DNA of 53,566 bases, counting the filler, from Jimgerdemannia flammicorona (lineage: Eukaryota): NCBI GenBank assembly GCA_003990765.1. It is 3 parts of 3 records of this genome, joined end to end, with 100 filler letters (N's around TTAATTAATTAA, not from the genome) between each part and the next. Parts side by side here need not be neighbours in the genome. Positions count along the whole stretch, not along the records: positions 1 to 17,795 come from RBNJ01002407.1; 2 more parts are not named here. One strand, 5' to 3'. How positions within the stretch are numbered: position 1 is the first letter of the stretch; each line of letters opens with the position of its first letter. Positions 499 through 50,045 of this stretch are shown in pieces. The notes under the pieces were generated by a model, which saw only the letters and a list, made by a program, of their open reading frames with translations, was not told where the DNA came from and searched no databases. Position numbers and translations under genes: made by a program.

Positions 499-2040
499 TA
501 TCACATAGTGGTCACTGAGTCCTTCAAATATGCCAGATTCTCTTCAAGGTGTATCTCTTAGACTAACTCAAGTTTGTTATAAGCAAGTTCTTATTGGAGT
601 GCCTTCCCAAGGTCTTATAGTCCTCAAACTTCTTATCTTTAACTGTCTTGTTATCTCTTAGATGGCTTGCAAGGAAGTGTATATAAGTGAACTTGACTGA
701 CTTTATTTCAGAGGAAATAAGAGGAGTATTTATACAAAATATAATTCAATGGTTGCTAAGATATAAAGCTAAATATAAATTCCAATAACTAAAACTACTA
801 AGTTCCAGGGCTGGTACTGATGGTTGTACAGGTTCAGGATGCTGGCATTATTTAGTATTACATCAAAATGTTGGTGCTGGAACAATTTCGCATCACCTCA
901 GAATACCAGTGCTGGTATTATCTAGTATTATATGAGAATACTAGTGCTGGCATTATTCAGCATAACAAGGAACTTAGAGCAGAAAGTTCAGGACCATGGG
1001 GGCTTTATCCTTATCATCATCATCACTGAAGGAGATGAGATCTGCGAATTCGTTATGCAGGTCACGTGTTTCGCATACTTTGATATCGCATGGGATGATG
1101 TCATTGCCGATGATATCATCATGTTCAGCTGTAGCAGGGAAATTGAGAACAAGATCTGGAGCTCTCCAGTCTATGAGGTTCTCTTCCACAAAATAGGGAA
1201 CAAATGTGGGATCTTGGGGAGGTCTAACCTGGATGCTTGGGCCTTGGAATACTGAGATCAATCCTTGTAGGAATTGGTCTGGGTTGTCCTGAAGGATAGG
1301 ATGCCAGAAGTCTTCTACTTCTTCACTGTTGAGAGTGATAGTGGACTGGGCTTCTGTAGCTACCCTGGCTTCTAGTGCATTGATATGGCGAGATGACAGG
1401 TCTCTGAAGTCTGAGACTCTGACATACTCCAAGTTGGGGATCGACCATGGTGCATGCCTGGAGATCTAATGGATCTTCTTAGCTGTCCTCATTTCACGTA
1501 TGTCCATAGAAGTGGTATCTTGTAGCTCTTGGGTGCTGGCCTGTGGGAACTCCTGGCAGAGGAGGTTTCCTATTTCATACTCCTGCCACATTTGGAGGTA
1601 TTCGGTAGCAATAGTGATCCTTGTTTCCATTTCATGGTAGTAGAGAATGAAGTGATAAGGGTCTGCAATACCTAGGTGGATACTAGGAGTCCTTCTTGAG
1701 CAGGTTCCCATGGCTCTTCTGATGTCTTGGAATATTCTTTCTTCGACTAAGATATCTTGGTGATTCCTTGACCTTGAGGTTTGGCAGGCAGTAGGCATTT
1801 TATTTATAGTAAGTCTTTGAGCTATTTTGAGATTGGTGGTTCTTGTTGGTTGCTGCTACTGTAGTTCCTTGATCCTTCTTTTATATTCTTCAGGATGCTT
1901 GTACTGTGGTCACAATGACTCACAGTTGGTCATTATTGCTCATCTTGTATACTGTATGATCTTCTTGTGCTTTGATCTGGTGGCTTACAAGGAAAGGCTG
2001 TTTTCTGTGCTGATGTCATCATTCTGGAGTCACTGTTATA
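499..2040 (-). repeat. 3' LTR of element A (1542 bp)
   Basis: Colinear with 7735-9252. On the - strand it starts TATAACAGTG (decayed TGTAAC) right after the PPT and ends CTATGTGATA. Confidence 0.93.
974..1798 (-). pseudogene. LTR-encoded accessory ORF, ~274 aa, unknown function, one internal TAG
   Basis: ORFs 1466-1798 and 974-1432 share a frame and are separated by one TAG, where the sister LTR reads CAG (KKIHQIFRHAPW). A TATAAAAG box lies ~80 nt upstream. Confidence 0.85.
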
Positions 2041-2050
2041 TCTTCTTCCT
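2041..2050 (-). promoter_or_regulatory. polypurine tract of element A
   Basis: AGGAAGAAGA abutting the 3' LTR. Confidence 0.85.
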
Positions 2051-2353
2051 GAATAAGGATCTTCTCAAGCATCCTTATTCATTGGTCTAGTCCTGAAAAA
2101 TTTGCTGATCCCATAACCTCTAGCAAGGGATCAAAAAGTGGTGTTTATGGGCTAGCATCTTCTCTTTGTATTTTGGCATGATGGTGAAGGGTCACTTCCT
2201 TTATATAGAGCAAGGGCCTGATTCTGATCTTGACCAATCAGTTGATGGTTCAAACTCCTCTAACTTTGAAAGTCTCACAGATAAGTAGTTGCCAGTGCCG
2301 TATCCCTTAGAGAATGGTCCAGACAGATAGCCTACTGGTCACGGGATATGCTA

Positions 2354-5300
2354 TTATGATTTACAGACTAGAACCTCATGAGTGGTCATCATGTTTTACT
2401 TCTCTTGTATAGGTTCATGGTACTTCTTGAGTCTGTTTCTATGTACCATAGTAGACAGTATGGTCTCTGAGATTTTTCTAAGCCAGAAGGTAGTTCCCTT
2501 GATATCTTGCATATAGAAGGGTCCTTCCCATTTGGGCTCCAGTTTTCATGACCATGAGGCTTCTACCATATTTCAATACAGTAGAATCTTTTCTCTGATT
2601 TGGATGGGTTCTAGGATCTTGTGATTCTTTTCTGCATTCTTCCTTGTCAGCACTTGTAACTTAGTGATGTAATCTTCAGCCTTCTTCCTGATTTGGTGTA
2701 GTCTCCAGATTTCTGCATCAACTCATCTCCAAGTTAGATCTAGATTTGTGGCTGAGGTTCCATCAGAATCTTCTTCTTTGAAGAGCAGCTCTCTTGGGGT
2801 AAAATGCATGCTCTGTGACTGTATGTCTCATAGGACAGAGAGGGCAGTTGGGAGATAGTTATCCCAATTCTTATATGTCTCTGAGATCTTCACTAGGATG
2901 TTCTTGAGGGTCTTGTTGGTTCTCTCTGTCTGTCTATTTCCTTGAGAGTGGTACACAGTAGTCTTGATGTGCTGGATCTTGTATTTCTGATACATTATCT
3001 TATGGAATCCATTGACAAATTCCATTCTATGGTCTGTTGTGATTTGCTTTGGTATCTTGTAGTGGCAGATGATTTCTCAGTATAGGAAGTTGGCTATAGA
3101 GAGGGCATTGGCTTCTTGTAATGCTCCTGCCTCTATCTATTTGGTGAAGAGGTCTACAATAACTATAATATAGCGGTTTCCTGATAGTATTACTGGTAGT
3201 GGTTCAATGATATCTATTGCAATGTGGTGGAAGGGGATAGGCTCAATTCTTGATGATCTGGATGCCTGGTCTAGCTGATCTTGTTTCTGTTTTTGGCACT
3301 TATCACACCCTTTGACAAATTGGTACAGGTCTTCTTCTATCTTGGGCCACCACATGGTTCTTCTTACCTTGCCATATGTGTTGGTTCCTCCTAAGTATCC
3401 TTGCTCATATACTTCCTTCATTACTTGATATATACTTCTTATATTCATGTATTACTAGCTTTCCTCCTTTTCTGAGTATAGTGTTGTCTAATTCAAACTG
3501 TTTCCAAGTCCGGTTAATGATGGTGATTGTCCAGGGTTCAAGGTGGTTGGGCATCTTTCACTGTCCAAGATAGCTGATTAATCCATAGTATAGCTCCTTA
3601 TTCATGTTGAATAATCTTGATGGGGGTGTTTCGGGGTGTCCTTGAGAGTGTATCAGCATTGGTATTGGTCTTTCCTGAGTAGTGCTTAACAGTACAGTCA
3701 TACTCTTGCAGCCTGTAGATCCATCTGGCATATATTCCTTTGGGGTTCAGAGTGTGGAATAGCTAGGCAAGAGCAGAATGGTCTGTTTGAATGGTGAAGT
3801 GTTTCTCAGCTAGGTAGTAGTGGAACTTGTCTACTGCCTAGACTACTGCTAAGCATTTAAGCTTGCATGACTCATAGTTCTGTTCTGCTCTGTGGGTACC
3901 TCGGCTTATATAGGAGATGACATATTCATATCCATCTTTCTTCTGAGCTAGAACTGCTCCAAGTCCTATAGCACTCACATCTGTCTACAGGATGAATTCT
4001 AGATTCCAGTCTGGTCTTCTGAGGATAGGTGCTTGGGTCAATCTGGTCTTGAGTTCATTAAAGGTTTCTTGGCACTCCTTGGTCCATTTGAATTTGGTCT
4101 CCTTCTTCAGTAGCTCGTAGATAGGTGCTGCAATGTTAGAGTATCCTTTGATGAATCTTCTGTAGTAGCTGGCCAGTCCAAGGAAGGCGTGGACTTCTGT
4201 GGTTGTTCTGGGTCTTGAGTAGACTACAACAGCCTCAATCTTCATGGGGTCTGTGTGGATTCCAGTCTGGTTGATGAGGTGTCCTAGGTAGGCAATTTCT
4301 TGAGCTGTAAACTTGCATTTCTTGGGCTTGATGTAGAGGCCATGCTTCTTGAGCCTCTTGAGGGCTAGCTGTATATGATTAATATGTTTCTGTGTAGTAT
4401 TGCTGAAGATGATCACATCATCAATATAGACAAAGAGCCATTTTCCAATCTTATTGCTGAAGACTCTGTTCATCATTCACTGGAAACTTGCTAGGGCATT
4501 GCACATTCCAAATAGCATTCGCAGATAGATATAGGTGGCATCAGGTGTGATGAAGGCTGATTTCTCACTAACATCTTGAGTGAGACCAATCTGATAGAAG
4601 CCTGAGAACAGATCCAAGGTGGTGTAGTATTTGGCTTTGCTTCCAAGGGTGGTAAGGATTTCTTGAATATTCGGTAAGGGCTGCCTATCCTTCTTGGTGA
4701 TAGCATTGAGCTTCCTGTAGTTAATGCAGAGTCTTGGTGCAAACTCTCCAGGCTTGCTTCCTTTCTTTGGGGCTAGAACAATGGGTGAGGCCCAGGGGCT
4801 GATAGCTTGCTTGATGATTCTGGCTTCTTCCATTTCCTTGAGTTTGGCTCGTAGCCACTCTCTGTAGGCAGGTGGTATGGGTCTGGCTTTCTGGTAGATG
4901 GGCTTGGTATCACCAGTGTCAACTTCATAGTAGTACTTGGATTCTTGATTGTAGATATCTCTGAAGTCTGTAGCAAGTACTCCTTCATTCTGGTACAGGA
5001 TCTTGAGAAGTTGTTCCTCCAGGGAAAAGTTTTCTCCAATAGTATATGTGTGCTTGTTCTGGTCCTTATCTTTCTTGTGCTCAAGTTTGGTAATCTTGGT
5101 GGTGGCATAGGCTCCTCTTCCAGTAGATCCAAAGCCTTGTTCTCCTCTCTTGTTCTTGATGAGTTCGATGGCTTCTATGATCTTGGGCTTCTTGATTTCG
5201 TGGATCAGCATCTGGCCAATCCTGTCATGCTTCTTGACTTCGAAGGGGGTGGTGTGGTTGTGATTTCTGACTATGAGGAAGATCTTGCCAGTATAATCAG

Positions 5301-7613
5301 GGTCAATTACTCCTCCTTCAACTGAGATTTCGCTTTTGGCCAGACTGCTCCTGGTCTTGATAATTCTGGTATAGTTTTCTGGCAGCTTGACTCCAATTCC
5401 AGTGCCAAGTAGGGTAGTGGTCTGTGGTTTGAGAGTAGCATCTTGAATGCTGGCAAGGTCCATTCCTATGGCTCCTTCAGTCTTGTATTCTGGGATCTTG
5501 GCTTCAGATTGACCTTGAGGGTGATGTCTGATTCTTGTTCCTCCTCATTGTCACTGTCAGCTTGAAGCTCTGGGGACTGGTCATCTTCTTCAGCTTTCCT
5601 TTTTGCTTTGGCGGCTTCTTGCTCATGTTTCTGTTGGTGGATTTTCCTGACTTCACTGATACAGGACCAGCAGTTATTCAGGTGTTCGGAGCAGTACATC
5701 CTAGTACTATGGGGGCATCTTCCTTGAGGGGCATAGCCATCAATGATCTTGTTGTACCACTGCTCATCTGTGAGCTTAGGTGTCTTGCTCTTGTTCTTGT
5801 TCACCGAGTATATGAAGACCTCTGTGTCTTCTTCATCTCCTTCCTCCATGTCTAGTAGGACTCCTTTGTGGACATTGATAGAGACTCGTATCTTTCTTCC
5901 TCTGTAGTTGATCTGTATCTTCTGGGCATTGAGGTCAATAATGGCCTTGGCCTTGTGAAGCCATTGGTTGCCAATGAGGATGTCATAGTTGGTGGCGCTT
6001 ATAACAATTACATCTACTGGAATGGTAGCTCCTCCTATCTTGATGGGGACTTCTTGGATTTTGCCAAGGGGGGTAGCTCATGTACCATCTGCTGTAACAT
6101 AGACCATCTTGGTGGACTCTTCAATGTCCCAACCTAGGTGGTCAATTGTCTTCTTACTTATGAGGCATCCTCCAGCATCAGTATCAATGATAGCATTGAA
6201 GATACAGTCTTCGATCTGATATAGGGTATAGGCTGATGTCTTGTGCTGGTCTTCAGATTCTTCACCTGAGTTCTTAGATTCTTTCTGTGCATTGTGAGCT
6301 TCTACAATCTTGTACTCTTGATTCTTGGTAGTAGTTGCAAGTCCTACTCTCAACTGCTGTCTGAAGGCAGGGACTTCAGCTAGCTGTCCAAAAGTGGCAT
6401 TGACCTTCTGTTTCTTGAGATCCTTGTAGATGTCATACTGGTAGATCTTGGTCTTGCATAGCTTCTGTTCCTTCTTGCTTTCACTTTCTCCTGAGACTGG
6501 AGTAGTGTCTTCAATAATTTGATGGGCAGCTTCATCTAACTCCATGTCTTGATCAATCTCCTTGGGTTGGGTCTTGCTTTGAATAGTGACAGCTGGGGTC
6601 TTCTTTGGTCTTCCAACTGGCTTACTGTTGCTCTTCTTGTCATAGGGCTTGGACTGGGTTCTGGTACCTTTAGTAGCAGGGTAGAATTCAAGCTCCTTAT
6701 AGTATTCTTCATCATCAGTGTCATCAATCTCTTTAATGACTACTGCATTGGTTTGTTCTCTGGTTCTGCTAGCATTGCTTGGTTGGGCTTTGTGTCTTGT
6801 TTCAGTCATGCAACTCTTTGCATAGTGGCCTTCTTCCCCACATCTGAAGTATATAATATTGCATTCTTCTGTAGTAGCTGCAAATCTCTGTACTAGTCTC
6901 CTGTTAGTGCTTCAGACCTCTCTAATAACATCACTAAGATGTGCAGTTATCTTGGCAAACTGCTTGGTGAGTTCTTCCACTGGATCAGCTTTGGCTGTCT
7001 TGGGGGTAGGTGGGGTTAGTTGTCTGTTTACAACTATGGCAGGTAAGATACTAGTTGGCTTTGATGGCTCCATCTTGATGTTAGTTATTTTCTCCATTGA
7101 GTGTTCGGCAGGATGTCTGGCAGTCTAATATCTCTGTACAAAGACCACTTTCTGATCAAGGGTCAGTGCAGCTGGGGTAGACCAGATTGCTAGGGCAATT
7201 TCAGAGTGAACTCCTTTGAGAAAGGTTGAATCTGCTATTTGTTCCTTAAGGTGGTCATCATAGTCAGCCAAGACAATCTGGTGGCAAATTTGGATATAAA
7301 ATGAGTTGGGATCTTCACTATGTCCCTGGCAGATAGTATTGAGTTGATCCTTGAGAGCTTGCTTGATCTCTTCAGTATAATATATTGTTCTGAGGAAGAC
7401 CTTCATGTTGGCAAGTTTGGCTGTACCAGCATCAGCAATGGTGACTGTATTGAACTTGTCTCTGGTAGGTCCTCTAAGGCTGACTAGTAGAAGGGCCAAT
7501 TGAGCATCCATACTAAGGGCTCATATGGTGGTGAATTGTTCAAAGTCTTCAATGAAGGTCAGGATTGACTCTTCAGTAGTATATCCATAGAATGTAGGGA
7601 GATGTATTTCCAT
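2354..7613 (-). pseudogene. pol: gag-pol of element A: Gag, CCHC knuckle, aspartic protease, CPH module, dUTPase, RT, RNase H, integrase (no chromodomain)
   Basis: Motifs (C)FRCGEEGHYAKSC, IIDT(G)AGG, SPWASP, LCINYRKLN, VYIDDVII, FLGLASYYRRF, CDKCQ, IAIDII, QTERTN and KWEGPF. Many nonsense codons. Confidence 0.95.
5115..5520 (-). pseudogene. dut: dUTPase domain within pol of A, between PR and RT
   Basis: Trimeric dUTPase motifs AIGMDL, RSSLA, GGVIDPDYTG, DRIGQ and RGEQGFGSTG. Confidence 0.92.
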
Positions 7614-7713
7614 CTTATCTTGAATTCTTACAGGGGTGACTCTTGTAGTCAGGGTAGTTGTTGTGGGGGTTGTTTGTTTTTCAGCTTGAAAGTGAGGGAT
7701 TCATTCTTGAATC

Positions 7714-7731
7714 ACCAGTCAATGGGCACCA
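7714..7731 (-). promoter_or_regulatory. primer binding site of A
   Basis: TGGTGCCCATTG.. 3 nt (ACT) after the LTR end. The priming tRNA cannot be identified by eye. Confidence 0.8.
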
Positions 7732-7734
7732 AGT

Positions 7735-9252
7735 TGTCACATAGTGGTTGCTGAGTCCTTCAAACACACCAGATTCTCTTCAAGGTATATCTCTTAGACT
7801 AACTCAAGTTTGTTATAAGTAAGTTCTTATTGGAGTGCCTTCCCAAGATCTTATAGTCCTCAAACTTCTTATCTTTAACTGTCTTGTTATCTCTTAGATG
7901 GCTTGCAAGGAAGTGTGTGTAAGTAAACTTGACTGACTTTATTTCAGAGGAAATAAGAGGGATATTTATACAAAATATAATTCAATGATTGCTAAGATAT
8001 AAAGCTAAATATAAATTCCAATAACTAAAACTACTAAGTTCCAGGGCTGGCACTGATGGTTGTACAGGTTCAGGATGCTGACATTATTTAGTATCACATC
8101 AAAATGCTGGTGCTGGAACAATTTCATATCACCTCAAAATACCAGTGCTGGTATTATCCAGTATTACATGAGAATACCAGTGCTAGCATTATCCAGCATA
8201 ACAAGAAACTTAGAGCAGAAAGTTCAGGACCATGGGGGCTTCATCCTTGTCATCATCATCACTGAAGGAGATGAGATCTGCGAATTCGTCATACAGGTTG
8301 CACGTTTCATGTACTTTGATGTCATGCAGAATGACATCATCGCTGATGACGTCATCATGTTCGGCTGTGGTAGGGAAATCAGGAACAAGATCTGGAGCTC
8401 TCCAGTCTATGAGGTTCTCTTCCACAAAATAGGGAACAAATATGGGGTCTTAGGGAGGTCTAACCTGGATACTTGGGCCTTGGAATACTGAGATCAATTC
8501 TTGTAGGAATTGGTCTGGGTTGTCCTGAAGGATAGGATGCCAGAAGTCTTCTACTTCTTTGCTGTTGAGGGTGATAGTGGACTGGGCTTCTGTAGCCACC
8601 CTGACTTCTAGTGCATTGATATGGTGGGATGACAGATCTCTGAAGTCTAAGACTCTGACATACTCTAAGTTGGAGATCGACCATGGTGCATGTCTGAAGA
8701 TCTGATGGATCTTCTTAGCTGTCCTCATTTCATATATATCCATAGAAGTGGCATCTGGGAACTCCCAGCAGAGGAGGTTTCCTATTTTGTACTCCTACCA
8801 TATTTAGAGGCATTCAGTAGCAATGGTGATCCTTGTTTCCATTTCATAGCAGTAGAGAATAAAGTAATAAGGGTCTGTAGTACCCAGATAGACACTAGGA
8901 GTCCTTCTTGAGTGGGTTCCCATGGCTCTTCTGATGTTTTGGAATATCCTTTCCTTGACTGAGATATCTTGGTGATTCCTTGACCTTGAGGTTTGGCAGG
9001 CAGCAGGTATTTCATTTGTGGTAAGTCTTTGAGCTATTTTGGGATTGGTGGTTCTTGTTGGTTGCTGCTACTGTGGTTCCTTGATCCTTCTTTTATATTC
9101 TTCAGGATGCTTATACTGTGGTCACAATGACTCACAGTTGGTCATCATTGCTCATCTCATATACAGTATGATCTTCTTGTGCTCCGATCTGGTGGCTTGC
9201 AAGGAAAGACTGTCTCCTGTGCTGATGTCATCATTCTGGGGTCACCGTTACA
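7735..9252 (-). repeat. 5' LTR of element A (1518 bp)
   Basis: TGTAACGG...CTATGTGACA on the - strand, with a 24-nt deletion relative to the 3' LTR. Confidence 0.93.
8210..9010 (-). pseudogene. second copy of the LTR accessory ORF (ATG>ATA, stops, in-frame 24-nt deletion)
   Basis: Fragments 8450-8743 and 8210-8425 are in one frame and match 974-1798. Confidence 0.85.
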
Positions 9253-9927
9253 CTAGATAAGAGAGGTTGATATAGTTATTGATTTTTATTATTAGATAAG
9301 AGAGATTGGTATAGTTATCAATTTTCATCACTTGATTGACTCTTACTTATATTCTTATATTCTTTTAGACTTTCTTTAGTATTGCCAGAGTAAGTAAAGA
9401 GAGCTTCAGTTTTTGGAGTAGTCTGGAGAAAAGAGGTTGGTATAGTTATTAATTTTTGTTACTAGAGAAGAAAGGTTGACATAGTTATTAATTTTTGTCT
9501 CTAGAGAAGAAAGGTTGACATAGTTATCAATTTTTATCACTGAAAAAGGAAGATTAGTACAGTTATTAATTTTTGTCACTAGAGAAGGAAGATTGATATA
9601 GTTATTAATTTTTGTCACTGAAGAAGAGAGGTTGATATGGTTATTAATTTTCATCACTGAATTGACTCTCACTTACATTCTTATATTCCTTTAAACTTCC
9701 TCTAACATTGCTAAAGTAAGTAAAGAGAGCTTCAGTTTTTGGAGTAGTCTGAAGAAGGAAGGTTGTCATGGTTATTGATTTTCATCACTAGAGAAAAGAG
9801 GTTGATATAGTTATTGATTTTTGTCACGGGAGAAGGCAGTTATTAATTTTTATCATTGGATTGACTATCACTCACATTTTCTTATACTCACATTTCTCTA
9901 GCATTACTAGAGTAGACCTGATCTTAT
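9253..9927 (-). repeat. left arm of a modular inverted repeat (39-bp units plus longer spacer modules)
   Basis: Tandem units CTAGTGACAAAAATTAATAACTATACCAACCTCTCTTCT on the - strand, the mirror of 11954-13120. Confidence 0.85.
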
Positions 9928-11953: not shown

Positions 11954-13120
11954 ATAAGATCAGTCTTATTCTGGAGATACTAGAGAAAGTATAAATATAA
12001 AAGAGTATAAGTGAGAGTCAATCTCTAATAATATATTACCAATCTCTCTTCTTTAGTGATAAAAATTGATAACTGCACCAACCTCTCTTTTCCAGACTAC
12101 TCCAAAAACTGAAGCTCTCTCTACTTACTCTAGCAATGCTAGAGAAAGTCTAAAGAAATGTGAGTATAAGAGAATATGAGTGAGTGTCAATCCAGTGATG
12201 AAAATCAATAACCACACCAACCTTCCTTCTTCAGACTACTCCAAAAACTGAAGCTCTCTCTACTTACTCTGGTAATACTAGAGAAAGTCTAAAGGAATAT
12301 GAGAATGTAAGTGAGAGTCAATCTAGTGATGAAAATTGATAACTGTACCAATCTCTCTTCTCTAGTGACAAAAATTAATAACTATACCAACCTCTCTTCT
12401 CTAATGACAAAAATCAATAACTGTACCAACCTCCCTTCTCCAGTGACAAAAATCATTAACTATACCAACCTCTCTTCTCTAGTAATAAAAATTAATAACT
12501 ATGCCAACTTCTCTTCTCTAGTGACAAAAATCAATAACTATGCTAACCTTCTCTCTTCTCTAGACTACTTCAAAAACTGAAGCTCTCTCTACTTACTCTG
12601 GCAATGCTAGAGGAAGTCTAAAGGAATATGAGAATACAAGTGAGCTAATCCAGTAATGAAAATTGATAACTGTACTAACCTTCCTTCTTTAGACTACTCC
12701 AAAATCTAAAGCTCTTTCTACTTACTCTAGCAATACTAGAGGAAGTCTAAAGGAATATAAAAATATAAGTGAGAATCAATCCAGTGATAAAAATTGATAA
12801 CTATACTAACCTCTCTTCTCTAGTGACAAAAATTGATAATCTCACCAACCTCTCTTCTCTAGTGATGAAAATTAATAACTATGTCAACCTCTCTTCTTTA
12901 GTGACAAAAATTGAACCCCTCTTCTCCAGACTACTCCAAAATCTGATGCTTTCTCTACTTACTCTGGCAATGCTAGATGAAGTCTAAAGGACTATAAGTA
13001 TAAGAGAATACAAGTAAGAGTCAATCTAGTAATAAAGATCAATAACTATATCAACCTCTCTTCTCTAAACTACTCTAAAAACTAAAGCTCTCTCTACTTA
13101 CTCTAATGATACTAGAGGAG
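11954..13120 (+). repeat. right arm of the modular inverted repeat flanking the transposase
   Basis: Same 39-bp units and AGACTACTCCAAAAACTGAAGCTCTCTCTACTTACTC modules in opposite orientation. The inner ends match (AAGATCAG..). Confidence 0.85.
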
Positions 13121-17795: not shown

Positions 17796-17895
17796 NNNNN
17801 NNNNNNNNNNNNNNNNNNNNNNNNNNNNNNNNNNNNNNNTTAATTAATTAANNNNNNNNNNNNNNNNNNNNNNNNNNNNNNNNNNNNNNNNNNNN
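17796..17895. other. assembly gap with artificial TTAATTAATTAA linker
   Basis: N44 + TTAATTAATTAA (17840-17851) + N44. Confidence 0.98.
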
Positions 17896-18320: not shown

Positions 18321-21300
18321 TCAGAATGTCACACTATCTGATTGAGTTCAAACAACAACACATAGATGAAATACTATAAAATAGAGTTATCAGACCCTCA
18401 TCAGGCCCCTGGGCTTCACAAGCATTATAATATCAAAGAAAGAAGGATGGAGACTAGTTGTAGACTTCAGAAAACTCAACAAGGTTACTATAGAAAATGT
18501 CTACCCACTACCCAGAATTGATGACCTCCTCAATACCCTAGAAAAAGGCAAGTACACGACCACTACTAATCAGTTTCAAGGATTCTAAGTAATACTTATT
18601 GCCAATAATGATATCTGCAAGATGGTCTTTATTATCAGATAAGGATAGTATGAATATCTCCAAATGCTATTTGGACTCTACAATGTGCCAGCCTCATTCC
18701 AGCAAATGATGAACTATATCTACTAGGACCTCATTGAGAGAAATATGCTAGTATATATAGATAATGTAATAATCTACTCTGAGACATTTGAATAATACTT
18801 GTAAGACCTCTATGAAGTATTTGACACTATCTGAAACTCAGAACTCAGACTTAATGCCAAGAAGTATTTCTTTGGAAAACACCAAGTTGAATATCTGAAA
18901 TATATAGTTTCAGCCCAGAGAACCTACACTGACCCATGTAAGGTGGAGAAAGTCAAGAATTATCCTACTCCTACCTTAGCAAAGGAAGCTCTAATCTTTC
19001 TCATATTGGTATCTTACTACCAGCAATTAATTTCAAGATTTTCAGACAAGACAGCTCTACTATACAATATTTCCAAGAAAGACAAACTATTTTACTGGAA
19101 GGAAGAACAACAGAAGTCCTTTGACCTATTCAAGAAGGCTCTCACTGAAGCCCCTGTCTTAGTGTGACCAGACTTTGACAAACTATTCATTCTGGTAACT
19201 AATTTCTCTGCTCTTGGACTTGAATTAATTCTATTCCAGTAAGATAACTAGAAGAAAGAACATGTCATTGAGTAAGCTAGCAAGGCTACTAACAAAACAC
19301 AAGCAAACTATGAAGCTATCAAGCTAGAATATCTTACAGTAGTATAGGCTATAGATCACTTCAGACACTATCTCTTGGGAAAGAGATTTGCTCTCATTAC
19401 TGACCATCAAGCTCTATAATAGTTGTTCAACAAACCAGAACCCTTAGGAATCTTTGCCAGATAGATCATGTCTCTGCAAGAATATCAGTTCACCATTGTC
19501 TACAAGAAAGGTATCAAGAATACCAACATTGATACTCTATTAAGAATCCTACAAACTTAAGAGAAGGAGCCCTCATGAGGGAAGGCTGCTTCCCACCTAT
19601 CTAAATGAACCAAGAACTGTGCCTTACTCTCATCTAAAGCCTATACCACAGCAGCTTCAAGAAAGAAATTCAGCCAGCTCACAAACAGTTCATTTAAAGG
19701 AATTTCAAGAAATTTCAAGAAGATGATGGTGAACTTTGGAGAGGAGAAGGAGATCAATATACCTAAGTTCTATAAGAGATGAAATACTAAAGATACTCAC
19801 AACCAACTATGATCAAAATGTACACTGAGAAATTGGAGTCACTATTACAAAAATTAATAAGAGATACTAGTAGCCAAAAATGAGAAAACAAATTTCAACT
19901 CACATTCAACAATGTGATATCTATTAAAGATACTGACAAAAGCCAATCAATAAAGCACTACTAATATCAATCACAGTATTAGCTGGAGCCTTTCAGAGAC
20001 TAGGAATAGACATTATATATCTTCTACCAATAATATATCAAGAAAGATACTATATTCTCACCATGGAAGATCACCTAACAAAATGGCCTGAAGTCTTTGC
20101 CATTGAGACTACTGATGCTCAGACAATCATTGGGATTTTATAAGATGAAATTTTCAGCTACCATGGGGTTTCCAAAGAAATCATCACAGACCAAGGCCAA
20201 GAATTTGTCAACAAAGCCATAAAGACCTTTGCAAGCAACTTCAAGATCAAACTGTACCCAACAATAGTCTACCACCTACAAGCCAATAGACTTACTGAAT
20301 AAATGAACCAGACCATCAAGTGAGGCTTCAGCAAAACTAGAGATTAGCTAAACTGAGACATATTCCTTCCAGCAATCCTATTCAGTATCTATACTTTAAA
20401 GATAACTACTACCCAACAAATACCTTTTTATTTGGTGTATAGCTAAGAAGCACAAGACTCTGCTGAACCAATCCAGTTGGATTTGACAAAATGAGACACT
20501 GAAGAGATCACTCAATTATACAAAGTATGCCAATAAGCATAAGGATTTATCACCAAAGCACAAGTATGGCAAAAGAAGTATTATGACCACAAAGCTGACC
20601 TAGAATCTCTACTTATTAGACAACAAGTCTTAGTATATCACATAATTGTAAAAGGAAACTAGAGCACCAAACTTGAACTGAAATGAAAAGAACCTTATCT
20701 TATACATCAAGTATTTATGAACCATACCTACCAACTCAAGACCTTAGATAGAGTTATACTCAAGAATAGAATACACCACAACCATATAAGATCTTACTAC
20801 TTAAAGAAAGCAAAACACATTTGAATAATTCCAATTACCTCATCTATATCATCTCTATTAAAGAATGATGGACACTTTATTTGGAACTCAAGAAAGTCAA
20901 CAATATCAAAACCAGTCTCAAGTCCATCTGCATGACAGATAATAAGCTACTAGAAATTGCCTCAGATTATAGGAAATACTATGTCTGAGAGGTTCAAACC
21001 CCCAGCCACAACAATGGGAGTCCTTGCCTTAGACCAGGATGGCCAGTCCTCACAAATGTACCAAAAGTACAAAAAAAAGAGAACTAAGACCTGCTATTTC
21101 TATATAACCACTACTATTAAGGACAGCTCTAATTTTGCAAGAAGCAGATGTGACAATATCTTTGAAATTGGTGACATCAGAATCTGAAGACTGCTTAGAC
21201 TTAGCAAGCCACTAGTTATAAGTTATGACTCAACTCTGACTCATCTTGATTGTAAGATGATCTGCAACTGATTCATGATGACTCATAATAACTTCAGCAG

Positions 21301-21599
21301 TACTACTCAAGTCAGATAACCCTATACTCTGGACCAAAAGAGCAGACCCTCAAGATATAAAGGAAGTATTAAGAGAAAGAGGACAAGGCATCAATTACAA
21401 AGTTCACTACAAAACAAAATACCTGACATCTGCCAAATAGTAAGGTCAAGGAGTCACCCAGATTCATCAGTCTAAGAATAAATATCTCTAATATCAAGAG
21501 GACAATGAGGCTGCATACAAGAAGGATCTCTAGTCTGAACATCTATATAAGAGACCCCTACCACTATACCCTCAACTACCAGAAAATGGAGATAAGAAT
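18321..21599 (+). mobile_element. pol: Ty3/gypsy element 'E': RT-RH-IN, post-IN module, start of probable 3' LTR
   Basis: SGPWAS, LVVDFRKLN, YPLPRIDD, VYIDNV, LITDHQAL, LTKWPE, TDQGQEF and YHLQAN motifs with many stops. Purine tract AAGAAGCAGA followed by TGTGAC at 21149. Confidence 0.88.
21419..21599 (+). pseudogene. N-terminal remnant of the accessory ORF in the probable LTR of E
   Basis: (M)PDICQIVRSRSH..IKRTMRLHTRRISSLNIYIRDPYHYTLNYQKMEIRI aligns to A (MPTACQTSRSRNH..IRRAMGTCSRRTPSIHLGIADPYHFILYYHEMETRI) with one frameshift. TATAAAG at ~21356. Truncated by a LINE. Confidence 0.8.
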
Positions 21600-23345
21600 C
21601 ACCTTTCTCTGCTACAATTCACGTTACACACACTTTTACAACACACTTTAAAGTCGTTTATTGGAGAAAGGTATTAAGGCAATGTCAACCAGCAAGCAAG
21701 TAGATGCACATACTAGGTCAGGTGGATCTGAGGCCTTCAACTGGCAATATGTCAGACAAAGAGATGGGCTTGGGATGGGGTCTTTTGGTGGTCTGAGTGG
21801 GTAAGGCAGCTCAGGCAGTGGAAGTGGTGCTGGTGGTGGAGCTGAAGAGCAGGCAGGGAGGAGCTTTACAGACACATTGAGGGATGGTAGTTGGCTGGTG
21901 GGACCTCAGGGTGGGCAGGCTGGAGGGAAGGAGAAGCAGAAGATTGGGGAAGCTGGAGGAGCTGGAGGAGCTGGAGGAGCTGGAGGAGCTGGACCTCAGC
22001 TGATGGGTTGTAGGACTGGTGGGATGACTGCTGGAAGTAGTGATGGGACTGCTGCTGGTGGCATGACTAAGAATCTGAAAAAAAATTCAGATGTAACTGT
22101 TGATGGTGGGGCTGGGCAGATGGGCCCAAAGTGGAAGGGGGACCTGGCTGATGGTGTGACAAGGCTAGCAGTGGCAATATTACTCAAGAAGTCGATTTTG
22201 GAGTTTGTGGCTACCTTGTGCTTCCAGGGCTTGGTAGTGACAGCAAGGATGGTCCTGGGGCTTATCTCACAGCAGATGGCTGGAGCAGCCTTGATGAAGT
22301 TTCTGAAGGGGCTGGAGGGAGTTGAGGTGAGCTTTGAGAAGGCAGGCCCACTAGATGAGGCTCTGAAGACTGGAGTGGTAGTCAGAGAAGTTGTGGTCCC
22401 TATGGTGTGCTGCCTTAGGTGAGACCCTAGGGTGGTACAGTTGCCAGTAAAGAGGGTACCTATGGTGACAAAGGCTGAGACTAGGAGGAGGGTGGAGGAG
22501 GTGATGGCAGAGTATAGCAATATGGTGGATATCGGCTTTTAGATGTAGGAGGAGACCACTGTTAGGAAGGTAATATTAATGTCAGGATTAGACTGGCTGG
22601 GAGAGAGGCCACAGAGAAGATGAGTGACTGGCCCTCAGTATTGATGTGGGGGGCATTTGTCTGTAAGGTGTTGAGGGTGAAGGGGAGTGAAGAGGAGGAG
22701 GACTTGTTGGAAGCACTGGAGGAGTTGAGTGATGTGGTCGAGCAGTGGGTGAAAGTCTGGAAGCTATATGAGAAGTTGATGTACCTGGAGATTATTGATG
22801 GGAAGTATATTTGTACTGACAAGAGGCAGTGGGAGAGGGCTCAAGGACGTAAGAGGCAGCAGAAGCTGCTGGCAAGCATGTAAGGTAGGGCAAAGATGAA
22901 GGCTGGGGGCACTGGGAAGTCTGAGGGTATAGAGGTGAGTATCTGGGCTAATGAGAGTGGAAGCAATGAGAAGGAGAAAATGAGAGGAGCTGAGAAGGTA
23001 CCACACAAGGACCCGTTCACTGATGGCACATTTGAAGTATGGGACCTGGTCATAGAGAACACTCCCCCTCTAATCAGGTCAGGTCCAGCAGCTAGGGGTC
23101 AGATAGAGGGGGATGTGTTGATGAAGAGTGCTCAGAGGGTTCACTTTGGGGTTTCTGATGTAACAAAAGGTAGTTGAGTGGTTGCAGTTGGTAAGGATGA
23201 GCTGGTGGATGTCCTGGAGGAGGGGTGGGATAAGACTGCCAGTGTAGGGGCAGACACTATAATGCTTGATACAGGGAGGCTGGGGATTCCAGGAGGGAAG
23301 GAGGTGGGGAACCTGCTATAGATGAGCAAGATGATGGATAACTTT
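21600..23345 (+). mobile_element. L1/Tx1-like non-LTR element: 5' UTR and degenerate ORF1, 3' part missing
   Basis: CACCTTTC 5' end and ATG at 21682. A Gly-rich N-terminus precedes an RRM-like VEVSFE..DEALKTGVVVREVVVPM..VQLPVKRVPM..EEVMAEY segment resembling L1/Tx1 ORF1. Confidence 0.6.
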
Positions 23346-26300
23346 ACAGCTCTCCCAGACAGACCATAGCAAGAAAGGGTTTGGATCAACCAACAAACCT
23401 CTCAGTCAAAAGGTCTCAACTATGAAGGAAGATGATGAAAACTAGTACAAGAGAATTGTAGATGATTATGTACTATGTGGATGATGCCCTTATTCTATCT
23501 GAATATACTGCATAGAATATATTGGTAAATGCCTTGCATGTCTCTCCAAAGTTTTCAAAATTCAATCTGAGAAGTGCTAAGTCCAATAGATGAGAAGCCC
23601 AAACAAGACCACCCTCCTTATGAAGGATGGGGAGAAACTGACTTTGAGGAGACTGACAGCAATTGGGACAATAATGAGGAGAAATTGCTTAACTCCATCA
23701 AGAAGGAGGACAGTTGCATCAAGTTTACAGGCCAAGTCCACAGACAGAATGTCAATATCTTACTGGATAGCAGTGCTACTGGAAACTATATCAGTACCAA
23801 GACTACCAAGAGAATTGGAGCCTGAAGCAGACCAGCCACTAAGAAAAGAAGTGTTACCTTTAGTAATGATAAGACTGTACCACTGACCAAGATCTGCAAA
23901 GATCTCTTGCTTAAGATTGGCAAATATCAAGAGAAGTTAGACTTCAGTATTATAGACCTTCTAGGATGAGACATTATCCTAGAAAAAGCCTAGCTGACCC
24001 AGCATAACCCAGACATTAACTAGAGGACTAATGAGGTTAATCTGACCCATGAAGGCAGAAAGATCACCCTGACACCCCAGAAATATACTAACTATTAAGG
24101 AATCGAAATCATCTCTGCCATCCAAAAGAAGAGACTCTCTTGAAAAAAAGGAAACACCTACTTCATCTGCACTATACAAGAAGTCACTGAAGCTACAAGT
24201 AGCTCAATTCCAACAGAAGCTCAAGAACTGTTTGAAGAATTTCAAGATGTATTTTAAGACCCTTAAGGACTTCCACCCAAGTGCCAAATCCAACATGGAA
24301 TTGATCTTATTCCAGAATCTGAACCCCCATTCAAGAGTATCTACCAACTGGCCCAATCTGAACTCAAGACCCTCAAGGATGAGTTGACCAAACTACTGGC
24401 CCAAGGATATATTGAACCCAGCTGCTCTCTATTTGGAGCCCCCATTCTGTTTGTCAAGAAGAAGGATGGCTCTCTGCAAATATATATTGACTACAGAGCT
24501 CTCAATAAGATCACCATCAAGAACTGGTATGCCTTGCCTAGGATTGATGAATTATTGCATCAAATCTTTAAGGCCAAGACCTTTTCTCTACTAGACTTGT
24601 GAAATGGCTACCACCAGATTCTCATTGATGAAAAGGACATTGAAAAGACAGCTTTCTGAATGTGGTTTAAATACTACCAGTTCCAAGTCATGCCTTTTGG
24701 TTTGACCAATGCACCAGCAATATTCCAGTATCTAATAAATGACATCTTTGGACCATTCCTCAATATCTGTGTCCTTGTGTACATTGATGATATACTAATC
24801 TACAGTGAAATAGTAGAGTTACACTACACCCATCTTAGATAGGTACTGACCCTTCTGTGGAAACACCAGCTCTATGCTAAGATGAGCAAGTGCAAGTTCT
24901 ACCAAGGCCAGATTGAGTATCTAAGACATATCATCTCTGCTGAAGGTATTAATGTAGACCCCTGAAAGATATCAGCTCTTAAGGATATTTCTATCCCCAT
25001 TACCCTCAAGCTACTCCAGTGCTTTCTGGGTATTGCTGGTTACTACTGAAGGTTTATCCAAGGATACTCTGCCATTGCAGTCCCACTGACCAGCCTGGCT
25101 TACAAAGAAGTAAATATCAAGACTGAATGAACCCCTGAATATATCCAGGCTATGGACTATCTCAAGAGACTCCTTACCAAAGCCCCAGTACTAATTGCAC
25201 CTGACTCTACTAGGCTATTCACTCTGACTACAGATGCCTCTGACATTGTCATTGAGATAGTGCTCAGTCAAGAAGATTGCCCAGTAGCCTACCTTTCCCA
25301 AAAGCTCAAGCCAGCTAAGACCCGGTATACCACCCATGAGAAGGAACTCCTGGCCATTGTTACTGCACTCCAGAAATAGCGCCATTTCTTCCTAAGACAA
25401 CCATTTGTGGCCTACACTGATCACTATACTCTGCGGTATATTTATATATAGTCCATGCTGACCTACAGACAAGTCTGTTGGATGGAAATCATTGCCAACT
25501 TTGATATAGAAATCAAGTATATCTCAGGCAAAACCAACCAAGTGGCTGATGGTTTCTCCAGATACATAGAAGATGAACTTGTCTTCATGGTCAAGATAAT
25601 TGGAGACCTTACCCAGATGATCAAGGATGGCTACTAGCAAGACAGCCCCCTGATGAATTTCCTTCAATTCTGTCAAGACCCAGAGGCTGAGGTCCCAGAA
25701 CTCATGAGGCAAATGTCCAAGAGATTCACTTACTATGATGGACTTATCTACAGGGACCATGACAGAATAGTTGTACCCAACAATGCTACTCTGTGGCTCA
25801 AGATCATGCAGGAACTCCATGATACTCCTGCAGCAGGACACTTTGGTTTCAAGAAGACCTACAATCTCCTCTCAAGAGAATTCTACTGGCCAAGATGACC
25901 AAGGATATCAAAGACTTTGTGGCCTCATATAAGATATACCAAAGGTTCAAAAGTGATAACAAGCTACCAGCAAGACTTCTGCAACCACTATCAATCCTAA
26001 GTCATAACTGGGATCAGATTGCAATATACTTTATTGTTCAGCTCCCCAAGACCAAGGCAGGATGGGATGCCATTGTGGTATTTGTGGACTGCCTAAGCAA
26101 ACAAACCCATTTTGCACCCACCAAGACCACTGCTACAGCACCAGAGATTGCTGAGATTTTCCTCAATCAAGTATTCAGACTACATGGCATGCCTATCACT
26201 ATTGTATCTGACTGAGATGCCAAGTTTACAAGCAACTTCTGAAAGACATTCTTCTCTCTCTATAGAACCAAGCTGAAGTTCTCTACTGCCTACCACCCCC

Positions 26301-26899
26301 AGACTGATGGTCAAACTGAGTGAACCAATAGGACCCTCAAGCAGATGCTTAGCATCTTCTGCTGTTACAAGCAGAATGATTGGGACAAGTACCTAGCCCA
26401 TGTTGAGTTTTTCTACAATAATAGCCAGCAAACCTCTATAAAGAAGACCCCATTCTTCCTGAACCATGGTCAACACCCAAGGACCCCAAGTACTACTGCG
26501 AAATCAGCAGTTCCAGTAGTCCAAGATCTAGCTGAGACCATTTCTGATCTGATCCAAATGACAAGAGATGCTCTCATAGAAGCACAGGACTACCGGACCA
26601 AGTATGCAAACTTGAAGTGAAGAGAAGTCTCCTACAACATTGGTGACATGGTCATGCTTAGGACAGACCACCTCCACCCAGACACCCTGGTAAAATAACT
26701 AGCCAAGAAACTCCATACTAGAAGAATTAGACTATACAAGATTGTGCAAAAAGTCAGAGAAGTCAACTATAAGTTGCAACTTCCCCACAATATCTTAGTA
26801 CACTCAGTATTCCATATCAGCCAATTGGTGGACTACAATGAGAACCCATTTCCCAAGTATACAGTTCCACCACTACCCTCAATTAGGATTAATGATCAT

Positions 26900-27065
26900 G
26901 AGGAATTCAAAATTGAGAAAGTACTTGACCACAAGATCTGAAAATACTCCAAAACAGTCAAGCAGTTTTTCCTCATCAAGTGGAAGAGTTACCCCACCCA
27001 TGATACTACCTGGGAAAAAGAAGAAGCTCTAGAGAATACATGCAAAGCCCTCCAGGACTATATGG
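26900..27065 (+). pseudogene. integrase C-terminal chromodomain
   Basis: EEFKIEKVLDHK...FLIKWKSYPTHDTTWEKEEALEN. Confidence 0.88.
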
Positions 27066-27748
27066 AAACACTTACCCCCCAGCAAAGGAAGGAGCTGCAG
27101 CTCTAAAAATTAGAGTACATAGAAAATAGGAGGATACTATATATTCTTATTTGAAATATATAATACTGAATATTGCAGAAAAAGAAACACTATAATTAAT
27201 TAATGAGAAGATACTCAGGCAAAGGACAATCTAGCATAGTATAGCAAAATACATTTGAATAACTCTATTTTATATCATCTGTGTTATCTCTACTGGATGA
27301 TGATGGATACTTCATATAGAACTTAGGAAACCCAATGATGTTGAAAACAATCTAAGCCCATCCAAATGACAGATATTATTACTAAGAATTGCCTTAGATT
27401 ACAAGAAATACTATTTCTGAGAGGGTCGAACCCCCAGCTGTGATAGTGGGAGCCCTTGCCCTAGATAAGGATGGCCAGTTCTCACAAATGTGCCAACTAG
27501 ACCAAAAAAAAAAGAACCAAGATCTGTCAAACCTGTGTAACCACAACTGCAAGTAGTGATATCTTTAAAATCAGGATTTTCACATATGACCAGAACATGC
27601 TCCACTTACAGCAACAGGTCATACATTCTGATAAAAAGCATAATCAAAAGAAGGTTATACCAGACAGGTGGATAAGTATAAATACCCAAGGCAAGAATAC
27701 CCCACAACTCTCATCCCTCTCTTCTCACAAAGAAAAGACAAGATAAGA

Positions 27749-28591
27749 ATGCCTACTACCTACTGCCAAACTACCTGCTATCAAACTGCCCACTGTAGCC
27801 AGCTCCTCCCAAGCCAGGTTGATCACCTATTTGGATATATCCAGGTTGCTATCCAAGGAAGGAACTGCTACTCTGAGGTCCTTAACCTCTCCAGCCTAGA
27901 TCTAGGACAATATGTCCTTGACCACTATGAACTCATCAAAAGAGCCTACCTTGCTACTAGCTGCCTAGAGATCTGGTATAAATATGAAATCAGCCATCAA
28001 CTCCTCTAATATACAAAGGACCTAACTACTGACCAGGTCTCAGACTGAACCCACCTGAACAGGCATAAGTAAAGACTTGCCAAGAAGGTCCATCAAATCA
28101 TGCACCATGCACCCTTTGCAATTCCCAACCTCAACTATATCCAACTGAAGGACTTCCAGAACCTCTCCTTCCCCAAGGTTGACAAGCTAGAAATCATGGT
28201 AGCCCAGGAAGCCAACTCCTGGATTACCCTCAAGTCTACTGACATCAAACTCCACTGGAGCCCCTTTCTGAATGACAATCTAGATCAATGGCTCCAAGGC
28301 CTCTCTGACCTCTTTGAAGGACTACCTATCCAAATGGATATCTCCAGGCATAAGGATCAAGAACCCTACTTGGATGGTCCCAACTGCATCAGGTGGAGAA
28401 CTCCTATACTGACACTCATACCAATGCTAGAACCATTTGCAGACCTCATTGATTTCTCTATCCTGGACAGTGAGTCATCAGCATCCACCCCCCCTGCTAC
28501 TGAAAAAGAAGGCAACAATACTGAGGAAGATTCTTCACCTTTCTCTCCCCTGGTTCTCAATTTCCAAATTAATGAGGATATTGATTTCTAA
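27749..28591 (+). pseudogene. accessory ORF (~280 aa), internal, between pol and PPT of element C
   Basis: One frame with three nonsense codons. YEISHQLL, AKKVHQIMHHAPFAIPNL, DQWLQGLSDLFEG, WRTP, FADLIDF and PLVLNF all match the LTR ORF of A/B. TATAAATA at ~27677. Confidence 0.85.
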
Positions 28592-28602
28592 GGAGGAAAG
28601 AA

Positions 28603-29308
28603 TGTAATAGAATAAATGAGTGAACAGATGAGATGTTACAAGTGATCACATGACCTGACAATGACATCATCATATGATCGAGTATGACATATGATATTAT
28701 AAACATGAATGATACAAACAATACAAATAAATGATATCCAGCTTATCCTCAGTTTTCAGTACTGCGGTATGACACTGCAGTAACCAGTACCACAGTATGG
28801 CACTGCAGCAACTAGTACCACAGTAATTGGCACCACAGTATGGCACTGTAGCAACTAGCATCACAGTAATTGGCACTACAGCAACCAGTGCCACAGCAAT
28901 GCTGATCATTGCCTAGCAATAGATATTGTGATCACAAACCTCACCATAGTTACCAAATATACTTAGTTAGAAATTGTGGACCAACTTGTATAAAGCCCCC
29001 AGTTTCCATCTGAAATAAAGCAGTTTTAGTTCAGTCCTTGATATAAGAATCAAGTCTCCTCCCACCTACACACATTCCCCTGAGTCTTAGTAATAACACC
29101 TAAGTGACTCTAGTGTTTCTGACTAAACTCCAGAAGCCTAACTAACTTCTGCCAGAACTGAGATTGATATATAAATTCCCAAAGACTTAAGTAAATCTAT
29201 TGAATCTGAATTTTAAGGCAAATTCAGTCTGTATATAGCAAAGGACAAGACCCTTGAAAGATAGGGCAAAAGAGAAAATCCTTTGAAAGATAAGACACTG
29301 CCACTACA
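28603..29308 (+). repeat. 3' LTR of element C (~706 bp, no ORF)
   Basis: Follows AGGAGGAAAGAA. Ends are TGTAATAG...CCACTACA, a decayed inverted repeat. TATAAA at ~28990, AATAAA at ~29014, and GGCAC/CAGTA tandem repeats at 28760-28900. Confidence 0.75.
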
Positions 29309-29718
29309 ACTACTTTTAAGTGAGCACTTCCTCAAACTGAAGGCTTCTTAGTATACATTGTATACTAAGTCTCTAAGTAATAGTCTTACTTCCCTAATTA
29401 TCCAAAGGATAAGAGAGGGGTAGAAGTGAGAGGTATTATACTCTACTTGCAGTAGTACTAAATCTACAAGTGTGTCTCCAATTACTACTTCATCTACACT
29501 CTCTTCCTCCTCACTCCACAGACCCCTCCACCTCTCCTTCAGTATTCCCAAGACCTGTTACATACCATGCACCATTTCTCCCTCTGCATCAAGGACTCCA
29601 TCCCATTGATATTGCACCCTCCTAGCCTGGAGGAGTCTTGACAAGTACCTAGTAGGCCTCTTCCCCTCCTCAAGCCCCTGTCACCTCAGTCTGGCTGCCA
29701 TTCCTTTCATATGTATCT

Positions 29719-35681: not shown

Positions 35682-35781
35682 NNNNNNNNNNNNNNNNNNN
35701 NNNNNNNNNNNNNNNNNNNNNNNNNTTAATTAATTAANNNNNNNNNNNNNNNNNNNNNNNNNNNNNNNNNNNNNNNNNNNN
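35682..35781. other. assembly gap with artificial TTAATTAATTAA linker
   Basis: N run with linker at 35726-35737. Confidence 0.98.
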
Positions 35782-35889
35782 TTTTCTCGTGGTCGAAATA
35801 CTTCGCGGTGATTTACTGGAGGTAAAATGGTAATAATGACGGGATAACGCTAATATTCGTTGACTAATCTACAATGCTTTCCACCATAG

Positions 35890-36588: not shown

Positions 36589-36856
36589 GCAATACTTGTA
36601 GCCCATTGAACCTTTTATAGAATGTGTCCAGATCAAGTGGAGTCGGAAACGAAACAAAATTGCGGTGGATCTGTTCAAATCGCTTCGCCCTCTCTTGCCT
36701 GGAATTATACTACTTCGGGGACAATAGTTAGATAAACTCCCCAAATTTGCCGGCCTTTTTCTTGGATATATAAAAATTTCCATCACTCTGTTTTGGTGAT
36801 AACCCCAAGCGTGTACCTACTGAATAGTGATGTTGTAATTAAATATATTGGATCAC

Positions 36857-49019: not shown

Positions 49020-49086
<67 letters not shown>

Positions 49087-50041: not shown

Positions 50042-50045
50042 ATAG

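Follow-up and report, generated by a model that had tools for sequence, protein, structure and literature searches.

An open reading frame (ORF) of about 274 codons lies in the sense orientation inside each long terminal repeat (LTR) of two Ty3/gypsy retrotransposons, termed A and B, in 53,566 nucleotides (nt) of DNA from Jimgerdemannia flammicorona (assembly GCA_003990765.1; the whole stretch is referred to as the window), and it is almost certainly a genuine coding gene. Purifying selection kept this LTR gene across element lineages down to ~30% protein identity, and the copies in the window are dead, having been killed after insertion by C-to-T and G-to-A transitions. Retrotransposon LTRs are treated as non-coding control regions and are masked by annotation pipelines. 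The gene is probably an accessory gene of a dUTPase-bearing Ty3/gypsy clade present in J. flammicorona and related soil organisms, and from its signals it is predicted, with a slight preference, to lie in U3 and to have a promoter of its own.

Architecture of the elements and the LTR gene copies

The window consists of three contigs, with N44-TTAATTAATTAA-N44 spacers between them at 17796-17895 and 35682-35781, and elements A, C-type (a third lineage) and B are on different contigs, so that adjacency across the spacers is meaningless. A BLAST search of positions 300-2200 against the window identifies a partner repeat at 7737-9250 (90% identical) and, in reverse orientation, two more copies (75-77% identical) at 40080-41621 and 47049-50047. 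The LTR ends of A and B were set from the four-way alignment by means of the TG..CA termini, the repeats starting with TGTAAC and ending with GTGACA. Element A is on the minus strand, with a 3' LTR of 1542 bp at 499-2040 that starts with TATAAC (a mutated TGTAAC) and ends with GTGATA, a 5' LTR of 1518 bp at 7735-9252, and a stop-broken internal region at 2041-7734 comprising gag with a CCHC knuckle, protease, dUTPase, reverse transcriptase (RT), RNase H and integrase. Element B is on the plus strand with a 5' LTR of 1546 bp at 40078-41623 and a 3' LTR at 47209-50041, the 1584 bp of which are interrupted by an insertion of 1235 bp with a 14-bp duplication, and ATAG is present on both flanks of the element (40074-40077 and 50042-50045). 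The direct repeats enclose gag-pol and each contains the ORF, placing it within Ty3/gypsy LTRs in both A and B.

An earlier note, made from the DNA alone, had bounded these LTRs by polypurine tracts, primer-binding sites (PBS) and the target-site duplication of B, and all of these are found. The polypurine tract AGGAAGAAGA (2041-2050, minus strand) adjoins the A 3' LTR and AGGAGAAAGA adjoins the B 3' LTR, the PBS-like sequences of both elements are TGG-initiated and located 3 nt past the 5' LTR (TGGTGCCCATTGACT at 7717-7731, minus strand, in A), and the ATAG flanks represent the duplication of B. No target-site duplication is recognisable at the flanks of A, and a tRNA scan for the primer returned 0 genes. 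The dUTPase of A is encoded between protease and RT (4477-5544, minus strand) and that of a third element is just before the protease match (33524-34204, plus strand), with Pfam E-values of 1e-26 and 4e-30, respectively.

The same frame of ~274 codons is found in four of four ~1.5 kb LTRs of A and B, as the earlier note had proposed, and being inside both LTRs the gene is present twice per element. The copy in the A 3' LTR (A3, 974-1798, minus strand) has 274 codons followed by TAA and is interrupted by a single in-frame TAG at 1466-1468, which is CAG in the other three copies; the other two sense frames of A3 are full of stops. In the A 5' LTR (A5, 8210-9010, minus strand) the ATG is replaced by ATA, and there are one 24-nt in-frame deletion and three stops, all three derived from CAA or CAG by transitions, so the lesions listed for A by the earlier note are reproduced in full. 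The copy in the B 5' LTR (B5, 40335-41111, plus strand) has six stops, a lost ATG and frameshifting deletions, and that in the B 3' LTR (B3, 47481-47849 and 49085-49529, plus strand) is split by the insertion and has six stops and two 1-nt deletions. The stops of B5 and B3 are derived from CAA, CAG or TGG, with one B5 stop corresponding to AGA in the A copies and CAA in B3. These frame breaks are of the same post-insertion transition type as those in gag-pol.

The C-type copy forms one frame of 280 codons with three stops at 27749-28591 (plus strand), and its protein is 33% identical to A3 and 56% identical to the environmental relative P0017. It occupies an LTR-like position between the end of pol (integrase at 26189-26395, with a chromodomain-like pol end at 26900-27105 judged by eye) and the coding region of the next element. 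An N-terminal fragment of a further copy (21419-21648, plus strand) is located in the preceding LTR-like repeat, of which 20809-21115 matches 27243-27548.

In the LTRs of A and B, C>T (99) and G>A (73) account for most of the post-insertion changes. Transitions are found at 47 of 251 CpA and 37 of 189 CpC sites, approximately five times the rate at CpT (7 of 207), and CpG is nearly absent from the pre-insertion state of the LTRs (8 sites). This is a RIP-like (repeat-induced point mutation) or deaminase-like signature in a genome of the Mucoromycota.

Evidence for a coding gene under selection

Database searches with the A3 protein, in which the stop was replaced by X, show that the frame has intact and diverged relatives. 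A word-index search of a 5.8-billion set gives six related proteins, five representative clusters are found among 1.84 billion proteins with no length limits, and a family profile search extends the family to 12 related proteins. The intact relatives have lengths of 271 amino acids (70% identical), 323 amino acids (~53%), 342 amino acids (35-37%) and 325 amino acids (29%). Two loci from one metagenome scan, on contigs L001 and L002, contain intact ORFs of 323 and 291 codons, and the relative P0019 is encoded on a contig of 4,848 nt. All 12 relatives come from JGI or ENA environmental data and none has an NCBI source or name, though the J. flammicorona proteome is part of the searched collection; with 0 of 12 from an annotated genome, the family has within this collection no homologue in host or other annotated genes. 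A scan of IMG/VR with alignment A1 gave 65 pattern matches and no relatives.

The frame itself is longer than expected for its composition. The longest one-stop frame spans 293 codons, and none of 2000 dinucleotide-preserving shuffles of the LTR reaches this length, the longest shuffled frame being 207 codons. The sense-strand composition of the ORF is A-rich as in gag-pol, unlike that of the host exon in the window. A derivation of the LTR gene from gag or pol was considered and rejected, since, of the 1219 pieces obtained by translating the window in six frames, the family profile matches none other than the LTR copies.

The distribution of substitutions over codon positions, a test that the earlier note had suggested, shows a clear bias. 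Sites were scored as fixed where both A LTRs agree, both B LTRs agree and A differs from B; such differences should mostly predate insertion. They number 17, 9 and 40 at codon positions 1, 2 and 3 (p = 8e-6 versus uniform) compared with 76, 42 and 74 for post-insertion differences (p = 0.008 for fixed versus post-insertion). The Nei-Gojobori ratio of nonsynonymous to synonymous rates (dN/dS) between the parsimony pre-insertion states of A and B is 0.20 in frame, compared with 1.04 and 1.34 in the shifted frames. The four indels common to both B copies relative to A (-21, -6, +12 and -6) are all in frame. Between lineages, nucleotide identity at positions 1/2/3 is.65/.75/.50 for A3 and L001,.53/.63/.41 for A3 and L002 and.56/.66/.40 for L001 and L002, giving the order 2 > 1 > 3 in three of three pairs; the proportion of differing synonymous sites (pS) in these pairs is 0.69-0.75, indicating saturation, and that of nonsynonymous sites (pN) is 0.28-0.41. 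The protein-coding nature claimed in the earlier note is thus borne out by the intact relatives, the dN/dS value, the codon-position pattern and the in-frame shared indels.

Promoter-like signals and LTR layout

A TATA box (TATAAAAG, 1885-1878, minus strand) is located upstream of the A3 gene; the distance from its first T to the start ATG is 87 nt, with no other ATG in between. A second TATA box (TATAAATA, 734-727, minus strand) is found near the LTR end, and the AATAAA of the A 3' LTR (707-702, minus strand) is 27 nt downstream of it and is followed by the initiator-like GTCAGTC, the second box and AATAAA being ~200 nt from the end of the LTR. The two TATA boxes and AATAAA are at the places indicated by the earlier note. 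The C-type copy has a similar layout, with TATAAATA placed so that its first T is 72 nt before the ATG and with TATAAAG and AATAAA at about 28988-29020.

The spacing is conserved across lineages, the distance from TATA box to ATG being 87 nt in A, ~88 in B, 72 in C, 65 in L001 and 80 in L002. The interval between the TATA box and the start is free of ATG in six of the seven copies, with the exception of A5, which has transition mutations there. The motif AGACTYACYACAAAYAAA directly precedes the ATG in A/B, L001 and L002, the proteins of which are only 42-54% identical. The second module, present ~240-400 nt past the stop in A, B, C and L001, is composed of TGTATAAA, 26-28 nt, AATAAA and (T)CAGT; the L002 contig ends short of the position of this module. 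BLASTN between lineages aligns just the ORF and a short leader, so that within the LTR conservation is highest in the ORF.

Upstream of the first TATA box, a 40-nt stretch (L002 positions 10-49, window positions 27452-27490) is 85% conserved between the C-type lineage and L002 and may be a U3 control element.

Proposed expression of the LTR gene

The arrangement of these signals suggests, as the somewhat likelier of the possibilities, that the gene is in U3 and is expressed from its own promoter, formed by the upstream TATA box at a distance of 65-87 nt from the ATG. RNA polymerase II would start ~30 nt past this box, in which case the AUG of the LTR gene would be the first AUG of the transcript, and termination at the AATAAA within that LTR would give an mRNA of ~1.2 kb that any LTR could make. 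Synthesis of the genomic RNA would begin from the downstream TATA box with the TCAGT initiator, set 26-28 nt before or at AATAAA, with the start falling at or immediately past AATAAA; this RNA would have no poly(A) signal at its 5' end and would contain both poly(A) signal and ORF at its 3' end. A genomic RNA starting at the downstream box would place the gene in U3, and the choice between U3 and R depends on which of the two TATA boxes starts this RNA. The separate transcription proposed in the earlier note gains support at the level of sequence from the conserved TATA spacing and the lack of an upstream AUG in five lineages and from the second module in four.

Several observations weigh against a functional gene with its own promoter in U3. 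All six gene copies in the window are broken. The dN/dS of the LTR pairs, which reflects post-insertion change, is already 0.37-0.41, indicating that transition-rich mutation alone lowers the ratio, and the McDonald-Kreitman-like contrast is modest (32 synonymous and 28 nonsynonymous fixed differences versus 70 and 116, p = 0.036). The LTR status of L001 and L002 is based on shared layout, the elements themselves not being seen on these contigs. No Pfam, PDB, ESM Atlas or fold match backs any function for the product, the best model of which has a mean predicted local distance difference test score (pLDDT) of 55. None of the sequencing runs recorded as RNA contains the stretch. In two small runs whose type is a guess, the fractions of sampled words present are 0.13 and 0.09, and the sequences recovered are only Logan contigs of diverged relatives, from which RNA or DNA, strand and transcript ends cannot be read; the contigs cover bins 441-2050, leave 2051-2190 uncovered and have a depth of 1-2 at 2191-2400. 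Finally, TGTATAAATA together with AATAAA could be a bipartite fungal poly(A) signal, which would put the gene in R.

This last point is central to the alternative in which the gene is real but located in a very long R, a reading that is rather unlikely and still to be taken seriously. Here the upstream TATA box would be the promoter of the genomic (packaged) RNA, TGTATAAATA and AATAAA would form the poly(A) signal or else the downstream TATA box would feed gag-pol translation in a BARE-like manner, and the ORF would be the first cistron both of the full-length RNA and of short transcripts stopping in the 5' LTR. Fungal poly(A) signals usually combine a UGUA/UAUA-like element with AATAAA, a layout with which the second module agrees, and an upstream TATA box that is conserved and without upstream AUG fits this reading as well. 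The available text of PMC3735527 provides a precedent for two TATA boxes in BARE, and that of PMC3485330 annotates an R region of ~2 kb in Retrosat2. On the other side, an ORF of 825 nt as first cistron would hinder translation of gag from that RNA, transcription would have to bypass, in the 5' LTR, a poly(A) signal located 1.2 kb from the cap, and the TCAGT initiator-like motif is at the distance from the second TATA box expected of a promoter.

Expression from a spliced subgenomic mRNA of the 3' U3 copy without a promoter of its own, the mode of mouse mammary tumor virus (MMTV) sag and human immunodeficiency virus (HIV) nef, is improbable. The 3' U3 copy is necessarily part of the genomic RNA, retroviruses offer the precedent, and the conserved stretch just before the ATG could contain an acceptor, but neither a pyrimidine tract nor a YAG acceptor is conserved there and five lineages retain the TATA box at its set distance. 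A similarly low probability, if anything a shade lower, is assigned to a captured host gene or fragment carried passively, or a gene decaying throughout the family, with no role for the element. The broken state of every window copy would agree with this, and LTR retrotransposons can acquire foreign ORFs, as bdelloid elements reportedly do. Against it, annotated genomes contribute none of the 12 relatives even with the host proteome in the collection, signatures of selection extend over at least three element lineages, several diverged relatives keep intact ORFs, and the breaks share the post-insertion transition type seen in gag-pol. A chance open frame in an A-rich LTR, for which only the lack of a known domain speaks, can be dismissed: the diverged homologues with intact ORFs and the pattern over codon positions refute it, as do the shuffle test, dN/dS and in-frame shared indels.

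Properties of the predicted protein

The earlier note recognised no known domain in the product, and the searches agree. Pfam identifies no families in two pieces of the window, and among 11 family members at E <= 1 gives only ATG5_HBR (two members, E 0.088) and GAE_BBS1 (one member, E 0.23), which are taken as chance. A PDB profile search has no matches at E <= 1, and the ESM Atlas returns a best feature score of 0.83 with a best TM score of 0.33, its own model having a pLDDT of 0.35. AlphaFold2 models reach a mean pLDDT of 45 with 11 sequences, and 55 with a predicted TM score (pTM) of 0.48 with 15 sequences. For this weak model, VIA-align against 48,161 chains gives a best Z of 4.2 and no match, and BFVD, which contains predicted viral structures, gives a best E of 0.28 and no match. 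Rows of MarR type in the structural comparison (Z 2.6-3.5, rmsd 7-10) were set aside as within the noise for helical models.

In the best model, residues ~15-31 and ~100-160 form a confident helical core, and the tail is disordered. A mildly basic character and an R-rich stretch mark the first 60 residues, and the C-terminal third is strongly acidic. The acidic tail contains a Phi-x-x-Phi-Phi motif, which takes the form F-x-D-L-I (FADLI, FEDLI) in several lineages and F-N-N-L-L in one, and a terminal motif P-x-V/T-L-N-F is kept in the family. This make-up, which is also what agrees with the transactivator or anti-silencing role suggested in the earlier note, resembles that of acidic activators such as foamy-virus Tas, and other adaptor roles would also fit. 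The most likely role, still at low probability, is that the product acts in trans on the expression of its own element, as a regulator or adaptor.

Comparison with known systems

Complex retroviruses have genes inside or overlapping their LTRs, as in MMTV sag, nef and tas. The closest in arrangement is MMTV sag, a sense gene of ~300 codons inside the LTR, in the U3 of a betaretrovirus, and present twice per provirus, for which the MMTV literature is said to use the term 'LTR ORF'. The fungal gene shares with it the size, the sense orientation, the location inside the LTR and the presence of two copies per element. The two differ in that MMTV is a mammalian retrovirus and sag encodes a membrane glycoprotein expressed from spliced or env-promoter RNAs, whereas the fungal ORF is preceded by what appears to be a dedicated TATA box and has no Pfam-level sequence relation to sag. 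Foamy-virus Tas (Bel1), and likewise human T-lymphotropic virus (HTLV) Tax and HIV Nef, the gene of which overlaps U3, resemble the fungal product as accessory proteins of ~300 amino acids; Tas is made from an internal, second promoter of its element, and a second promoter is predicted here. Tas has an acidic C-terminal activation part, comparable with the acidic tail and F-x-D-L-I of the fungal family. In contrast, foamy tas is situated between env and the LTR and just runs into U3, and there is no homology or fold match between Tas and the fungal family at the confidence of the present weak model.

Among retrotransposons, BARE1/BARE2 of barley are Copia elements with an LTR of ~1.8 kb and two TATA boxes giving separate RNA pools, the upstream box producing RNA that is replicated and the downstream box RNA that is translated, according to the available text of PMC3735527. 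The likeness is the long LTR with two TATA boxes and the difference that, as far as that text describes this plant Copia element, no ORF is located between the boxes. ORF0 of Retrosat2/RIRE3/RIRE8 and the env-like ORF of Athila are comparable as lineage-restricted ORFs of unassigned function, less constrained than pol, in long-LTR elements (available parts of PMC3485330 and PMC2864245); as described there, these plant Ty3/gypsy ORFs are internal, upstream of gag-pol or past pol, whereas the fungal ORF is inside each LTR. The dUTPase-bearing fungal Ty3/gypsy chromoviruses of Postia, Phanerochaete and Tuber have the dUTPase between protease and RT as in A, but the available portion of PMC2864245 describes no LTR-borne ORF for these elements of Dikarya, and the host here belongs to the Mucoromycota. 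The 'LTR ORFs' of PMC12037069 are pol ORFs, and PMC6875170 and PMC3601003 contain nothing on an LTR-borne gene. Literature searches, which covered few subscription journals, found no gene described inside the LTR of an LTR retrotransposon, and this is not proof of absence. What appears to be new is an accessory gene that is placed in the LTR, apparently has its own promoter and encodes a family without known relatives, the host being an early-diverging fungus.

A conserved LTR gene would extend the coding repertoire of Ty3/gypsy elements beyond gag-pol(-env), in an arrangement for which a few complex retroviruses are otherwise the main known examples, and solo LTRs could stay gene-bearing units after loss of the element. 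Fungal retrotransposons would also have evolved the kind of accessory-gene strategies that are considered typical of complex retroviruses. The gene further defines a concrete protein family of at least 12 members with no known fold, set in the repeat-rich genomes of mycorrhizal Mucoromycota, with transcription, RNA handling and silencing evasion as candidate roles. A more speculative extension, possible rather than probable, is that these are "complex retrotransposons" in which each LTR, solo LTRs included, is a promoter-ORF-poly(A) cassette whose product, working in trans as a regulator or adaptor, boosts transcription of the family or blunts host silencing. If this is true, the gene would be a fungal counterpart of retroviral genes of the Tas/Tax/Rev type with an independent origin, and thousands of LTRs could supply the factor.

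Other features of the window

The insertion in the ORF of the B 3' LTR (47850-49084, plus strand) is a G/T-rich sequence of 1235 bp without a long ORF, and is less transition-worn than the surrounding LTR. At its end, AATAAA is followed after 25 nt by a 61-nt poly(A) run, and the 14-bp duplication GATGCCCAACTTGG borders the insertion, so that it looks like a retrocopy mediated by a long interspersed nuclear element (LINE) or a non-autonomous non-LTR element. Just outside the A 5' LTR, short tandem-like repeat blocks in AT-rich DNA, at 9251-9914 and 11965-13119, are 70-88% alike and mutually inverted.

The second contig (18418-35680, plus strand) is a head-to-tail array in the order pol-LTR-pol-LTR-pol, in which neighbouring elements seem to share LTRs. 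Its parts are RT and integrase at 18418-20380, the LTR-like repeat from 20809, protease, RT and integrase at 23410-26395, the LTR with the C-type gene at ~27243-29309, and dUTPase and RT at 33848-35680. Within the 4.5-kb interval that separates the C-type LTR from the next element's dUTPase there are two open frames on the plus strand, at 30133-31005 (290 codons) and 31901-32737 (278 codons), which have acidic, Pro/Thr-rich tails and no Pfam match and could be diverged gag or further extra ORFs. Paralogy of the frame at 30133-31005 with the LTR gene was rejected, the hmmsearch E-value of 0.023 being accompanied by an hhalign probability of 6%.

Host sequence is represented on the third contig and marks the host as a fungus of the Endogonales (Mucoromycota) rather than an animal, a plant or a pathogen. 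A weak amino-acid-transporter-like frame at 35864-36514 (plus strand, E 2e-4) is a host gene remnant near the contig start, and an N-terminal exon of malate synthase at 36783-37283 (minus strand) is 99% identical to that of J. flammicorona and 60-80% identical to those of other Mucoromycota.

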